This document shows positions 29,884 through 33,876 of a DNA stretch of 64,000 nt, in pieces. Both the position numbers and the translations under genes were made by a program. Position 1 is the stretch's first letter. Every line of letters begins with the position of its first letter. The notes beneath the pieces are model-generated. The model saw only the letters and a program-made list of their open reading frames with translations. It was not told the DNA's origin and did no database searches. This stretch comes from a candidate division WOR-3 bacterium (GTDB lineage Bacteria > Hydrothermota > Tepidihabitantia > SM23-42), in the NCBI GenBank assembly GCA_020341755.1, contig CP070834.1:1749141-1813140 (forward strand). Reading direction: 5' to 3'.

Positions 29884-31392
29884 ATGGTCTTCTTAACTGC
29901 TCTGTTTCTCATCAACCTGCAGGCTGACCTGCGCTGGGTCGAGGTCGATGTTGCACTCTGGCAGGATGGCAGGGCGGATTTCGTGTACCGGGTGCACTGG
30001 AACGTTATGTCCGGGACGATGAGCGGGTTCTACTTCCAGGAAAAGACCGTCGATCCCTATTTTGAATACGAGAGCGCCTATGCAGTCGATGACTGGGGTA
30101 ACGAGTACCGGATCGAGATCAAGGACCTCGGCAACAAGTACGATATCATACTGGGAGACAAAAAACGCTTCGGCCCCGGAGAAATCACCTATATCTTCCA
30201 CTTTGGAGGAGACCTCGGCAGCAGTGGCAATCTGGCGCTGACCGAGAGTGAATTCGGTGACCTCGTCGTGTTCCACTGGGCACCTGCTCAATGGGATGAG
30301 CCTCTTGAACACTATACAGTGTACGTGTACTATCCGATCAAATCAGCGCGTGGGAGGGTGGACCCTGCTGAATACGGATTCCGGACAGAGCGGTTCATGA
30401 ATGAAGAGTACCTGCTTTCGTATTTCAGTCAGGAATACGAAGGGGAGCAGTGGTTCACGGTTCGTATTCACAAGAACGATCCTCCGTCGACGTATAAAAT
30501 GCTCATCCAACAATACGTACCTGCCGAATACTTCCGTGCTGAGAAATTCGGAACCATAACGATCACTCCAGAAGCCCGCGATGGATTCGGCTTTCCTCTG
30601 GAGATTTTGTGGATGCTTGTGTACATCGTCCCCTATCTCATGTATGGCAACCGGAAGGCGAAAAAGATAAAAGGTACCTACAGCCAGGTAGCAAGCCTGA
30701 CGTGGCTTCGGGACGACTGGGTACCTCCTAAGATCGAAGTGGCACAATTCCGGAAATCGGGTAAAGTCGCCAAACTTGATCTGATAGAGGCAGCGTTCTT
30801 GCTCGATTATCCGGTCAATAAGATCTTGACCATCCTGGCATCGAAATTAGAAGATAACGGTATCATCAAAGTACAATCTACGGCACCGGTCAAGATAACC
30901 GTCCTGCAGCGACCGACCGTGAGATACTATGAAGCAGCATTTCTCGATGCAGTAAAACCGGATGGCACTTTCGATGAAGCAGGCCTACAGAGAGTGGTCA
31001 CGGAAGTCGTTGAGAAGATTTCCCAGAAGGCTTGGGACTGCGATCTCGAGGCAACGAAATTGTATTATGAAGAGAAGATCGGTGCCCATGTTCCTGAAAC
31101 ATCGCTCGATAAAGAATACGATAAACGTGAATATTATGATTACCTCATGAACAGGGATTTCACGCGGCGCCATTATTACAGCGAACGGGAGCAGGGTTTT
31201 GTCATACCGGGGGAAGCGGTCAAGAGCTATTCTGCTTTCGTACGTTCGGATGCATGTCATAGCGCATGCTATGTGCATACAGCATGCCATGATGCCTGTC
31301 ATTCAGCATGTCATTCGGCCTGTCATTCAGCGTGCCATTCAGCATGCCATTCGGCGTGCCATTCGGCGTGTGTGAGTGGAGGAGCCCACTGA
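29884..31392 (+). CDS. membrane protein with C-terminal Cys/His-rich (His-Ser-Ala-Cys)n tandem-repeat tail
   Basis: The 502-aa ORF has its first ATG directly after an in-frame TAG. It has an N-terminal hydrophobic segment, a roughly 240-aa beta-rich domain, a central TM helix ([19 protein letters not shown]) and a cytosolic-looking domain. It ends ...[48 protein letters not shown]. Confidence 0.55.
   Translation: [502 protein letters not shown]
31251..31372 (+). repeat. imperfect 12-nt tandem repeat (about 10 units, consensus CATTCRGCNTGY) encoding (HSAC)n
   Basis: The repeat is directly visible at the 3' end of the 29884..31392 CDS. The unit differences lie almost only at third codon positions. 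Confidence 0.8.
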
Positions 31393-31542
31393 ATGCAGAA
31401 CGCTGAATGCAGAAGGCAGAATATTGCAGTCTTCGACTGCATCGATGATCCCGGTTATGTTATTAAAAAATATGCATATTCAAGGAATCGGGATTCTCGC
31501 TTCGCGGAACAGTGATGAAACAGAAAGATTACGGAGATCTTT

Positions 31543-31620
31543 ATGCGAAATAAGACATGTATGATTGCTGATTTTAAATTTATAATTGATAATTTGAAAT
31601 GTCAAATTGAGAAGAAATGA
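31543..31620 (+). CDS. candidate small ORF (25 aa, MRNKTCMIADFKFIIDNLKCQIEKK), possible precursor peptide
   Basis: An ATG with GGAG 6 nt upstream starts the ORF. Its stop overlaps the ATG of the radical SAM gene as ATGA. It is AT-rich and small, and could alternatively be promoter or leader sequence. Confidence 0.25.
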   Translation: MRNKTCMIADFKFIIDNLKCQIEKK

Positions 31621-32975
31621 TACAAGAAAGAGAACTCAAAGCACAAGACTGCCAAATAAAAAAATATCATACAGGTAATTATGCAGAATCCGGGCAGTTT
31701 GACCTCGGGTGGGTGGATGAGTTTGTAAAGAAGATCAGTCCGTATATCTTTGTACGAGAACTAGACAGTCTTTTGATACTCATACCAAATCAGGCTTATA
31801 AATTGAATCCTTCGGGAATTGCGGTCCTGTCTTTCTTGCTAAAGGGATACAGCATACAGGAGTTCCTCCAGACCATCGGTGATACCTCCGACAAACGACG
31901 GGATCTCCACATGTTCTTCTGCGACCTTAGAGCGGTAATCAATGGCTGCCTGCGTGAGAACGATCACCGGGAAGCAGTCGCCTATTATGAGTTCAACGGG
32001 AATGTCGGAAAATACCCTGTTTTGAGCGAAGTTGCAGTAACGTACCGATGTAATCTCAAATGCCGTTTTTGTTACGTGGGGCACCAGCGCAGCCCGGAGA
32101 TGAACACGAATGATATGAAAAAAGTACTGCTGCGCATACGCCACGAAGCACAGGTGCCATCGGTGAGTTTTACCGGCGGTGAACCGCTGCTCAGACAGGA
32201 TCTTGGTGAACTGGTAGCGTATGCTACCGGCATCGACATGTGGACGAATTTGATCACCAATGGCACACTCCTCACACAAGAATTAGCTGATGAACTGAAA
32301 GGAGCGGGTTTGAAAAGTGCGCAGGTCAGTATTGAAGGACATGCAGCACTGGTTCATGATCGGTTGACCGGAGTGAGCGGATCGTTCAAGAAGACCCTCA
32401 CGGCCATCCGCATACTCCAGAATACGGGGGTCAGGGTACACACGAACACGACCCTTTCCCGGGAAAACATTCAGCACGCAGAGCAGATACTGTGTCTCGC
32501 GCGCAGATTAGGATTGAAAAGGGTATCGATGAACCTGCTGATCCCATGCGGAAGTGCAGCACAGAGCAGTGATCTGTGGGTCTCATATTCTGAGGTCGGT
32601 GATCATATCCTGAGGCTCAAACGACGAGCCCGCGAGGAAGGAATCGATTTTCTCTGGTATTCACCCGTACCCCTGTGCACATTCAATCCCATTGCCCATG
32701 GTTTTGGTAATAAATCGTGTGCCGCATTAACCGGTCTGCTGAGCATCGACCCGCAGGGGAATATCATTCCCTGTTCGTCATGGCCCATGCCGATCGGGTC
32801 GCTGCTCCGAAAAAGTTTTCAGGATATATGGCAGACCCCGATGTTGAGTTACTTCGAGAACGTTGAATACGCACCAGAAAAGTGCCGAAGGTGCGAGCAT
32901 TTAGATGTGTGTAAAGGAGCATGCCCCCTGTACTGGCATGCATGCGGTGTGGGAGAACTCGATGCAAGAGCATAG
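31617..32975 (+). CDS. radical SAM/SPASM-domain enzyme with N-terminal PqqD-like RiPP-recognition element
   Basis: The 452-aa ORF has the CNLKCRFCY (CxxxCxxC) radical SAM cluster motif with a GGEPLL SAM-binding motif. The C-terminal Cys-rich region CSSWP...CRRCEHLDVCKGACPLYWHAC is SPASM-like. The N-terminal roughly 100 aa (DSLLILIPNQAYKLNPSGIAVLSFLLKGYSIQEFLQTI) resemble PqqD/RRE. Confidence 0.75.
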   Translation: MIQERELKAQDCQIKKYHTGNYAESGQFDLGWVDEFVKKISPYIFVRELDSLLILIPNQAYKLNPSGIAVLSFLLKGYSIQEFLQTIGDTSDKRRDLHMFFCDLRAVINGCLRENDHREAVAYYEFNGNVGKYPVLSEVAVTYRCNLKCRFCYVGHQRSPEMNTNDMKKVLLRIRHEAQVPSVSFTGGEPLLRQDLGELVAYATGIDMWTNLITNGTLLTQELADELKGAGLKSAQVSIEGHAALVHDRLTGVSGSFKKTLTAIRILQNTGVRVHTNTTLSRENIQHAEQILCLARRLGLKRVSMNLLIPCGSAAQSSDLWVSYSEVGDHILRLKRRAREEGIDFLWYSPVPLCTFNPIAHGFGNKSCAALTGLLSIDPQGNIIPCSSWPMPIGSLLRKSFQDIWQTPMLSYFENVEYAPEKCRRCEHLDVCKGACPLYWHACGVGELDARA

Positions 32976-33876
32976 GACATACCTTATCTTTGACAGGATC
33001 GGTTCTGGCATGCGTATGTTCTTTTCCGTACTGCTTGTCGCCGTGGGCTTCCTTGTACAACTTGCCACTAAAAATATCCTTGCCGGATTGCCATTTATTA
33101 TCTTCTGTGCAGTCTTCAATATGCTGCGCGGTATCAGTATCAAGAAAATTGTACCGAAGGAATTAACCTGGCAGGAAGTGACTCCTGCCAAGATAGAGGA
33201 CGTGATCACTCAGTGCAAAAAGATCAAGCGGTTCAGGAGCAGTAACACGGGTTGTATTGTGATCGCTGTCCTCTTGGTTTTTGGTCTTTCTTTCGGTGCT
33301 CCGGTCCTTTTCTCCCTGCTGTCATCGAGTCCTTTTGCACTCGTTGCGACCATTATAAATGCTGTAATCCTCTTTGCCGCAACGGGTTTAAGCGGACGAA
33401 AATCTGCCTGGATGCCGCACGCCCTCGATATCAAGGCGAAGATTGTGCAGCGGATGCTCGCATCAACGGTGTTCAAGAACGAACCCGGAGTCATGGCAGT
33501 CCCCTATATTGAGATAGGAAAAGGAGGTGCCGGGACGTTTCCCAATGATGTCCGTTTTTTGTTGAAATTCAAGGATGCACCCGATGATCTGATCGGTCTG
33601 CAAGCCCAGATCTCGATCAATACGGTTAAAGGAAGGCCCTATCCATACCTTTATGTAGTGCTCATCGCGAAGCACGCATTCAGTCTTTTCAAAAAATTCC
33701 CCGGCAAGGAACCCGACAAACTTGTCATCGAGCAGAAACGGACAGGTGAAGTCGATGTGGTCGTTATCAGACAGCGTACCACCAAGACATCAGGGTATCA
33801 CACTGATGAACATGTCCAGGATTATATCCTTCGTCAGGGTATCGTTCTGACCAGACAGACCATCAAAACTACCTGA
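32962..33876 (+). CDS. membrane protein (4 TM helices plus soluble C-terminal domain), translationally coupled to the radical SAM gene
   Basis: An internal ATG with a GGGAGA Shine-Dalgarno starts the ORF, which overlaps the last 14 nt of the radical SAM CDS. Hydrophobic helices occur at roughly residues 20-45, 50-70, 115-140 and 145-170. No recognisable domain. Confidence 0.45.
   Translation: MQEHRTYLIFDRIGSGMRMFFSVLLVAVGFLVQLATKNILAGLPFIIFCAVFNMLRGISIKKIVPKELTWQEVTPAKIEDVITQCKKIKRFRSSNTGCIVIAVLLVFGLSFGAPVLFSLLSSSPFALVATIINAVILFAATGLSGRKSAWMPHALDIKAKIVQRMLASTVFKNEPGVMAVPYIEIGKGGAGTFPNDVRFLLKFKDAPDDLIGLQAQISINTVKGRPYPYLYVVLIAKHAFSLFKKFPGKEPDKLVIEQKRTGEVDVVVIRQRTTKTSGYHTDEHVQDYILRQGIVLTRQTIKTT

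Follow-up and report, generated by a model that had tools for sequence, protein, structure and literature searches.

Four consecutive forward-strand genes, here termed g1 to g4, form a compact cassette within the 64,000-nucleotide window analysed (contig CP070834.1 of a candidate division WOR-3 bacterium), in which a membrane protein with a Cys-His repeat tail is encoded beside a radical S-adenosylmethionine (rSAM) enzyme and a second membrane protein. The tail carrier, g2 (29884..31392), is predicted to be a single-pass membrane protein of 502 amino acids (aa) on the basis of its AlphaFold2 (AF2) model, Foldseek searches and the topology of its homologues, and its last 47 residues (31249..31389), which include 10 Cys and end in (CHSA)6CVSGGAH, are the proposed substrate of the enzyme. 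An AT-rich, lineage-specific and non-coding spacer of 224 nt, assigned to neither strand (31393..31616), separates g2 from g3 (31617..32975), which encodes a 452-aa enzyme composed of a recognition element typical of ribosomally synthesised and post-translationally modified peptides (RiPPs), a radical SAM core and a SPASM domain. The ATG of g4 (32962..33876), a 304-aa membrane protein, lies 14 nt inside the end of g3, and this start is backed by the alignment of homologues. The four same-strand elements of the original prediction (the tailed membrane protein, the spacer with a small open reading frame (ORF), the enzyme and the overlapping membrane protein gene) are thus all present, and directly 5’ of g2 lies a further conserved gene that the prediction did not mention, g1 (29433..29822), encoding a 129-aa soluble protein with homologues upstream of the tail gene in related loci. 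Of these genes, g2, g3 and g4 constitute a three-gene module whose members are near-obligately linked.

The g2 tail is a strikingly regular repeat. Eight of its 10 Cys stand in perfect C-x3 register (CHDA, six copies of CHSA, then CVSG) after an irregular stretch of 10 residues, in agreement with the roughly ten tandem C-H-S-A units first described. In the underlying DNA, Tandem Repeats Finder detects a 12-nt period whose copies match at only 77-88%; the units therefore differ at synonymous sites, and the repeat has been kept at the protein level rather than being the product of recent slippage. Over its 47 aa the tail shows 100% identity to those of three other loci, which come from two complete WOR-3 genomes and a metagenome-assembled genome (MAG), and among the four WOR-3-type tails there are 17-30 differences per 141 nt, all synonymous, with zero amino-acid changes. 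Identity of 47 residues despite so many synonymous differences shows that the repeat is not due to chance, and on this comparison it is under extreme purifying selection. Across 186 tails, the repeat unit consists of Cys (100%), His (98%), a variable position occupied by Ser (78%), Asp (15%), Asn or Gly, and Ala (99.9%), such that Cys, His and Ala are essentially invariant over 1353 repeat units. Nearly all g2 homologues end in (ACH[S/D/N/G])n-ACVSGG, with n ranging from 2 to about 11, the terminus is almost always CVSGG[A/S/G][H/R], and the repeats are preceded by a conserved segment, F-x-x-S-x-x-C-x-x-[G/A]-C-[F/Y]. In the AF2 model of g2 the tail appears as a nominal helix with no confident structure (predicted local distance difference test (pLDDT) 43-47), which fits a segment that requires modification or a ligand.

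The body of g2 is predicted to run from an N-terminal signal-like segment through an extracytoplasmic beta-sandwich and a transmembrane (TM) segment to a cytoplasmic winged-helix and helical domain, a Tyr-rich linker and the tail. In the model (overall pLDDT 81), the beta-sandwich spans residues 13-213 (pLDDT above 90), one long helix occupies residues 239-269, with the TM segment at residues ~235-255, and the winged-helix unit (residues 300-340) and the helices that follow it (348-399) both reach a pLDDT of about 90, while the Tyr-rich linker after residue 399 is of low confidence. Homologues begin with a classical signal peptide and have a single central TM segment, or in some cases three, with Lys/Arg on the C-terminal side. 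An odd count of membrane passes, combined with the signal peptide and these positive charges, leads to the prediction that the tail sits in the cytoplasm alongside the enzyme. Hydropathy also indicated a second TM segment in g2 homologues, which was rejected as it corresponds to the amphipathic helix of the winged-helix domain. Foldseek returned only generic beta-sandwich matches for g2, namely the M1 aminopeptidase N-domain and ribophorin I, and searches with PDB sequence profiles of g2 and g4 matched nothing meaningful.

Homologues of g2 with 23-63% identity were found in WOR-3/Stahlbacteria, Aminicenantes, Spirochaetia, Ozemobacteraceae, Anaerolineales, MAGs labelled ‘Proteobacteria’, Helarchaeota and Promethearchaeota. 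Some of these aligned with the query through the tail alone, and profile comparison of such matches indicated that their bodies are homologous as well (for example, P0205 over 403 columns with a probability of 100%), with the profile of P0215 aligning to the cytoplasmic part of g2 plus the tail. Complete tail carriers are without exception at least about 490 aa long, and range up to ~850 aa. The N-terminal domain of the window g2 scores 16.7 bits against DUF2207 (PF09972) and that of P0127 24.1 bits, relative to a Pfam cut-off of 24.4, and several homologues have a precomputed PF09972 match. Pfam, NCBIfam and PADLOC offered no family for g1, g4 or the g2 body, nor one that claims the enzyme subfamily of g3, and NCBI names the cassette proteins only ‘radical SAM protein’, ‘hypothetical protein’ or ‘DUF2207 domain-containing protein’. 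Many database copies of g2 are ‘partial’, split by frameshifts or missing from the protein collection (for example, at loci L038, L052, L068, L105 and L125), and this frequent breakage of the gene during assembly or gene calling may be the reason that the family was overlooked.

The enzyme encoded by g3 matches Radical_SAM (PF04055; 4.7e-27, 95.6 bits against a cut-off of 29.5) and SPASM (PF13186; 1e-09, 38.9 bits against 21.5). Its cluster motif, C145-x3-C149-x2-C152 (32049..32072), is invariant in 49 family members drawn from across phyla, as are C354, C368, G381x4C386 and C423x2C426x5C432x3C436 in the region of the SPASM auxiliary clusters (32676..32945); C443, which completes that region, occurs in the window protein and in the family consensus and is absent from both lists of conserved columns. 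The pattern agrees with the seven-Cys SPASM motif (also TIGR04085), CX9-15GX4C ... CX2CX5CX3C ... C, which serves two auxiliary clusters. More than 100 homologues share 58-89% identity with g3, mostly from candidate division WOR-3. The AF2 model (pLDDT 77.5, predicted template-modelling score 0.82) exceeds a pLDDT of 90 in the core. Ahead of the core lies a PqqD-like RiPP recognition element (RRE; residues ~28-112, 31698..31952), in which three strands (residues 44-47, 52-55 and 59-63) are followed by three helices (65-75, 80-87 and 91-108) in a block with pLDDT mostly of 78-95, which is the topology of an RRE, and in which W32, R47, D50, P57, N58, N64, G77 and F100 are invariant or nearly so.

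The RRE, whose absence would have spoken against a peptide maturase, is also recognised by sequence, as the Pfam PqqD model (PF05402) matches 18 of 26 family N-terminal domains (best 4.2e-12), although that of the window g3 itself falls under the cut-off (0.097, 13.5 bits against 23.4). The best PDB profile match of the N-terminal domain is the lasso-peptide RRE TfuB1 (0.0094), followed by PqqD and TbiB1. Foldseek comparison of g3 with the PDB ranked SkfB, SuiB, BlsE, PqqE, CteB and TigE ahead of anaerobic sulfatase-maturating enzyme (anSME), and the alignments to SuiB and CteB span about 435 of the 452 residues and so include the N-terminal domain. By sequence, the nearest solved relatives of the family profile are SkfB (3e-25) and PqqE (6e-25). 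The proposed architecture of RRE, CxxxCxxC core and SPASM domain is therefore borne out by Pfam, AF2, Foldseek and PqqD matches. The 49 members neared no cut-off of the curated NCBIfam subfamilies (AhbD, NirJ, PqqE, MftC, GeoRSP, ScmE/F, ACGX, PapB, StsB, HxsC and anSME-type); the best match was AhbD at 157.8 bits relative to a cut-off of 500 (best E-value 5e-51), so that g3 belongs neither with anSME nor with the cofactor-biosynthesis enzymes represented there. A role in anti-phage defence was rejected, as the sole PADLOC match was to the generic rSAM core of viperin.

Linkage between tail and enzyme was assessed from both directions. A genome scan with the single rSAM protein sequence gave no matches, and scans based on the tail pattern and on an alignment were used instead. 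A degenerate DNA pattern for C-H-x-A-C-H-x-A-C-V-S-G, applied to one genome per species, yielded at least 120 loci. These came from the Spirochaetota (including Treponema), Planctomycetota, Myxococcota, Acidobacteriota, Aminicenantes, WOR-3, Hydrogenedentota, Kiritimatiellae, Verrucomicrobia, Lentisphaerae, Chloroflexi, Clostridia (Acetivibrio and Ruminiclostridium), Gemmatimonadota, Gammaproteobacteria, Nitrospiraceae, Bacteroidota, Gaiellales and Desulfobacterota, as well as the archaeal Thorarchaeota and Promethearchaeota, and included a cultured carrier, Desulfobulbus alkaliphilus DSM 24258. The tail was the extreme C-terminus of a g2-type protein in all 116 loci with a callable tail ORF, the remaining four matches lying too near the end of the 8-kb block. 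An rSAM gene was found near the tail gene in 83 of the 91 loci with at least 1.5 kb 3’ of the tail stop, most commonly in the order tail, rSAM, g4 (72 loci), but also as tail, g4, rSAM in an Acidobacteria type (five loci: L013, L061, L077, L098 and L109) or, in the Thorarchaeota, divergently upstream with a g1 homologue in between (six loci: L008, L065, L070, L076, L082 and L097). Four archaeal loci had too short an upstream flank to be assessed, and L083, a candidate rSAM-free locus, was rejected because a run of N (an assembly gap) occupies that place.

The other three loci (L012, L041 and L021) had no rSAM gene nearby. In L012 and L041, both from Bradymonadales within the Myxococcota, g4 directly follows the tail gene and no rSAM gene occurs within 4.6-5.8 kb, while L021, from a Clostridia MAG, holds the tail gene alone. 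The MAG that contains L012 also holds a second, complete cassette (L019), which suggests that paralogous substrates are served in trans. From the opposite direction, an alignment of 49 diverse g3 proteins was scanned over metagenome contigs, and among the best 80 of at least 549 relatives (45-66% identity) a tail gene was present upstream in all 66 loci with at least 250 nt of upstream sequence; in 65 of these the tail stop was within a few hundred nt on the same strand, and in the 66th it was 2 kb upstream. The association of the enzyme with Cys-repeat proteins, left open by the original prediction, is thus near-obligate in both directions. The g1-g2-g3-g4 cassette is also kept intact in the two complete WOR-3 genomes and the MAG, where its flanking contexts differ.

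The third member of the module, g4, has four hydrophobic segments (residues ~19-35, 45-61, 99-115 and 125-141) that are predicted to form two TM hairpins, consistent with its initial description as a 4-TM protein, together with a loop rich in Lys and Arg; its C-terminal ~160 aa form a domain, predicted to be cytoplasmic, that carries the motifs YPYxYxV and VIRQxTTKxSGYHT. At 50% identity, g4 accounts for 361 clusters out of 1.84 billion representatives. In 60 of 69 genome loci a g4 gene is present downstream, and in nearly all of 61 assessable metagenome loci it comes after g3. A strict filter on start distance passed 40 of these 61; in 19 of the 21 that failed, the g4 ORF either adjoins the called rSAM ORF at its end or overlaps it. 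L154 has a shortened rSAM call and a g4 match ~670 nt further along, and in L176 no g4 was seen.

In bacteria that include WOR-3 and Aminicenantes (L001-L003, L017, L036, L040, L069, L075, L078, L083 and L101) and in the Thorarchaeota (L008, L065, L070, L076, L082, L094 and L097), homologues of g1 with 38-78% identity stand directly 5’ of the tail gene, and share invariant residues that include P4, G6, F17-S18, D21, W89, G91, F96-P97 and W102. Among assessable metagenome loci, 13 of 43 have g1 ahead of g2; it is probably an optional, accessory component of the cassette. In 17 spirochaete-type loci, an unrelated ~330-aa ORF without a Pfam match occurs immediately 5’ of the tail gene (on the forward strand at 964-1959 in L060, for example) and may be a lineage-specific accessory gene or an over-extended ORF call. 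When the other ORFs were clustered over 207 loci, no further recurrent partner emerged, the largest independent family being present in 17; large ‘extra’ gene clusters around the cassette were rejected as shadow ORFs inside g1-g4. Because no other family exceeds 17 of 207 loci, there is no conserved protease or exporter, in line with the earlier remark that the usual RiPP protease/exporter pair is missing.

The architecture, linkage and conservation of these genes lead us to propose, with a probability of about 60%, that g2, g3 and g4, with the optional g1, are a self-contained module in which g3 modifies the cytoplasmic tail of g2 in cis. By analogy with characterised enzymes, the modification would most probably consist of thioether cross-links. 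In the proposed sequence of events, g2 would be inserted so that its beta-sandwich faces outwards and its winged-helix domain and tail reach into the cytoplasm, as its predicted topology implies, and the RRE of g3 would dock either on the repeats or on the conserved segment that precedes them. The radical SAM site, aided by two SPASM auxiliary clusters, would then abstract hydrogen along the repeat, with one modification per CHxA unit, and the likeliest product, solely by analogy with SkfB, CteB, PapB and QhpD, would be a thioether from Cys sulfur to carbon of the sactionine or ranthionine type. The g4 protein is translationally coupled to g3, is predicted to have all its soluble parts in the cytoplasm and probably anchors g3 beside g2, or else uses the modified tail. 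The modified product would remain on the membrane protein, the module having neither a leader peptidase nor an exporter, and a mature ladder of Cys and His could possibly function in metal binding, a redox relay or the transmission of signals from the outer domain. The system appears to be undescribed and to act on a whole membrane protein rather than on a small secreted peptide; full-text literature searches gave no description of it, nothing joining DUF2207 with radical SAM and nothing on the CXXX repeat, and matches to the TIGR and PF accessions and to tail sequence strings were all unrelated.

The original prediction had offered the Cys-x3-Cys tail as a plausible substrate of the neighbouring enzyme, and the linkage, the RRE and the selection on the repeat lend support to that choice, while the modification itself is something we infer. 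Of its two suggestions for the kind of system, in-cis modification is the one favoured, given that the tail was never found on a stand-alone peptide, and a noncanonical RiPP is not backed. Several points weigh against modification of the tail by g3. The chemistry is argued by analogy, and the known thioether synthases with the architecture of g3 have short peptides with a leader as their substrates, in contrast to a membrane protein of 500 aa. The highest hidden Markov model scores of the g3 core are to tetrapyrrole enzymes (AhbD and NirJ2), albeit far under the cut-offs, and L012, L041 and L021 carry a tail gene that has no adjacent rSAM gene. In addition, a tail so rich in Cys and His could serve as a metal ligand without any modification.

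The last of these points can be developed into an alternative explanation, in which the unmodified tail would be a ligand for a metal or metal cluster (Fe, Zn, Ni, Cu or a chain of Fe-S clusters) in a membrane complex with the rSAM enzyme and g4, and might supply metal or electrons to an enzyme that acts on some other substrate. Every unit contributes a Cys and a His, the variable position is occupied by Ser or Asp, and AF2 finds no confident ligand-free fold. The three tail genes without an rSAM neighbour would also be accommodated, as would the observation that the low-complexity cytoplasmic tails of ordinary DUF2207 proteins need no rSAM partner (PMC10457818). Metal-binding tails of this kind would, however, usually drift in length and sequence, and the invariant Ala (99.9%) and exact register found here are more readily explained if an enzyme recognises the repeat than by ligand chemistry alone. 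The peptide-recognition RRE of g3, its closest relatives among peptide and protein maturases, the near-obligate coupling of tail and rSAM genes and the lack of any other conserved candidate substrate gene nearby in the 207 loci also argue against a purely ligand-binding tail, which we consider unlikely.

A role in haem attachment is far less probable still. Since CHSACH reads as C-x3-C-H throughout the tail, the overlapping CX3CH motifs could be viewed as a variant of the c-type haem motif, to which an AhbD- or NirJ-like rSAM enzyme would attach a tetrapyrrole, or remodel one, to build a multi-haem wire, and the best NCBIfam scores of g3 are indeed to AhbD (haem b synthase), NirJ2, AhbC and NirJ. 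These scores are nevertheless far under the cut-off (158 versus 500 bits) and derive mainly from the generic rSAM core, with models for PqqE, MftC and sactisynthases scoring about alike, and g3 has an RRE whereas the tetrapyrrole rSAM enzymes have none. Known attachment of haem c is extracytoplasmic (the Ccm and Ccs systems), and the predicted cytoplasmic tail would be on the wrong side of the membrane for such haem lyase systems. Carriers of the tail also include Treponema, Ruminiclostridium and Acetivibrio lineages, which would usually be expected to lack cytochromes c.

The spacer between g2 and g3 was considered as a source of a separate precursor. A 25-aa ORF is indeed present within it (31543-31620), as first noted, but its membership in the system was not borne out, as tblastn gave no significant match to it in about 200 related loci. 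The tail and rSAM genes abut or overlap in most loci, which have no spacer, and in L207, the closest relative (rSAM 89% identical), the spacer is rearranged and holds a different ORF, with only the last ~55 nt ahead of the rSAM start conserved relative to the window. Spacer ORFs of 25, 40 and 62 aa were accordingly rejected as precursors, being unconserved and located in a spacer that is mostly absent and rearranged in L207. Short tandem units of the GAATGCAGAA(C/G)G type directly follow the g2 stop (31389-31422), and L207 has more copies in a rearranged order (3769-3990 of that locus); the GAATGCAGAA-type stretch may be a lineage-specific regulatory or repeat element. Stand-alone tail peptides were likewise rejected: all five short tail ORFs that do not lie at a locus edge are frameshift-split g2 genes, and a short leader-core precursor for the maturase was not found among the short tail ORFs, which are either split g2 or cut by the end of a locus. 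A conventional RiPP pathway, in which the 25-aa ORF would be the precursor or the tail would be cleaved from g2 and released, can therefore be dismissed as very improbable, since the RRE-rSAM-SPASM architecture typical of sactipeptide and ranthipeptide synthases is accompanied here by spacer ORFs without conserved counterparts, no recurring peptidase or transporter family, no free tail peptide, a tail predicted to be cytoplasmic and a g2 body that is itself conserved from bacteria to archaea.

Among characterised systems, the sactipeptide and ranthipeptide synthases are the best solved relatives of g3 by both sequence and fold, and SkfB, AlbA, CteB (SCIFF) and PapB (freyrasin) share with it a PqqD-like RRE, a radical SAM core and a SPASM domain with its full set of Cys. 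The Cx3D repeats of PapA likewise present Cys at a fixed short spacing in tandem. In contrast to these systems, which use a leader-core peptide, the proposed substrate here is the C-terminus of a membrane protein of ~500-850 aa, there is no peptidase or exporter, g4 serves as a dedicated partner in the membrane, His and Ala are invariant in the C-H-[S/D]-A repeat, and g3 scores under the cut-offs of PapB, StsB and every other curated maturase family. QhpD, which acts on QhpC, and anSME offer a second point of comparison, as these rSAM/SPASM enzymes act on protein Cys and the modification is retained in the mature protein. QhpC is a small soluble subunit with links from Cys to Asp/Glu, whereas the tail comprises 8-10 identical units on a membrane protein. 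anSME is without an RRE and requires a C/S-x-P/A-x-R motif that is absent here, and although it is among the fold matches of g3, its alignment covers ~338 columns and leaves out the N-terminal domain.

Two families defined in silico, the CXXX-repeat target (TIGR04117/PF27846) and the ACGX-repeat (TIGR04340), similarly place a C-terminal Cys-x3 repeat next to an rSAM/SPASM enzyme. TIGR04117 scores 17.2 bits against the window tail (E 0.004; profile positions 59-97 of 98) and 14.6-18.7 bits against g2 homologues, relative to a cut-off of 50, and PF27846 is recorded as a weak match on some homologues. The tail is thus no member of a named family, as originally stated, yet it bears a weak likeness to this one. 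TIGR04117 models a protein of ~98 residues, whereas the tail carrier is large and has a conserved body; the ACGX rSAM model scores 87 bits against g3 (cut-off 400), and TIGR04115, which we take to be the CXXX-repeat maturase model, is not among the matches of the g3 family at E<=1e-20. To our knowledge there is no experimental work on the CXXX- and ACGX-repeat systems, and literature searches gave none.

The body of g2 invites comparison with the DUF2207 proteins. These proteins (for example, SMU.243 of S. mutans), whose function is unassigned, share with g2 the same topology of an exported N-terminal beta-sandwich, a TM segment and an intracellular low-complexity C-terminal tail (PMC10457818). 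Ordinary DUF2207 tails differ in being Gly/Ser-rich and are not reported with rSAM enzymes; the proteins have been reported beside LemA (PMC12631010). Variant tail ends in L006 (Promethearchaeota; P0215 and P0216) and L042 (Candidatus Vecturithrix) bridge the Cys-His repeat and the tails, rich in Gly/Ser or in Cys/Ala, that ordinary DUF2207 or TPM-type proteins carry, with that of L042 combining the Cys-His and DUF2207 tail types, which hints at a common origin of these enigmatic tails.

Upstream of the cassette, the window encodes an 1800-aa SprA-like protein (type IX secretion), an M28 peptidase and a ComEA-like HhH protein (22762-29328), and downstream a nitrilase-type CN hydrolase, a LUD-domain protein, an AhpD/CMD-like protein and a GTP-dependent PEP carboxykinase (33869-37667); the synteny of these flanks recurs in L003 and L207, which assigns the window to a WOR-3-like lineage. 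The 118-aa CMD/AhpD-family protein (35308-35664, reverse strand) has weak sub-threshold matches to TIGR04169 and ArsM_AhpD_UU (selenoprotein-associated AhpD-like), and no evidence ties it to the cassette. A promoter-like site, TTGACT-16-TACAAT, lies just 5’ of g1 on the forward strand (29385..29412) and is possibly the promoter of the operon, although it is a consensus match only and such sites are no more numerous in the region than expected from shuffled sequence.

RRE-containing radical SAM/SPASM maturases have been studied almost wholly as makers of small secreted peptides, and here one is tied to the tail of a membrane protein, in a module that occurs mostly in uncultivated lineages from bacteria to the Thorarchaeota and Promethearchaeota. 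If g3 does modify the tail, radical SAM cross-linking would come to include membrane proteins matured in cis, the large DUF2207 superfamily would gain a first functional handle on one of its branches, and the 8-10 identical units would provide a compact substrate for studies of processive rSAM catalysis. More speculatively, and with the odds against it, the cross-linked tail could be a protein-derived metal-binding or redox ‘ladder’ cofactor that forms, together with g4, a transmembrane sensing or electron-relay device in more than 20 bacterial phyla and the Asgard archaea, in which case it would be no natural product but the founder of a new class of cofactors derived from proteins.

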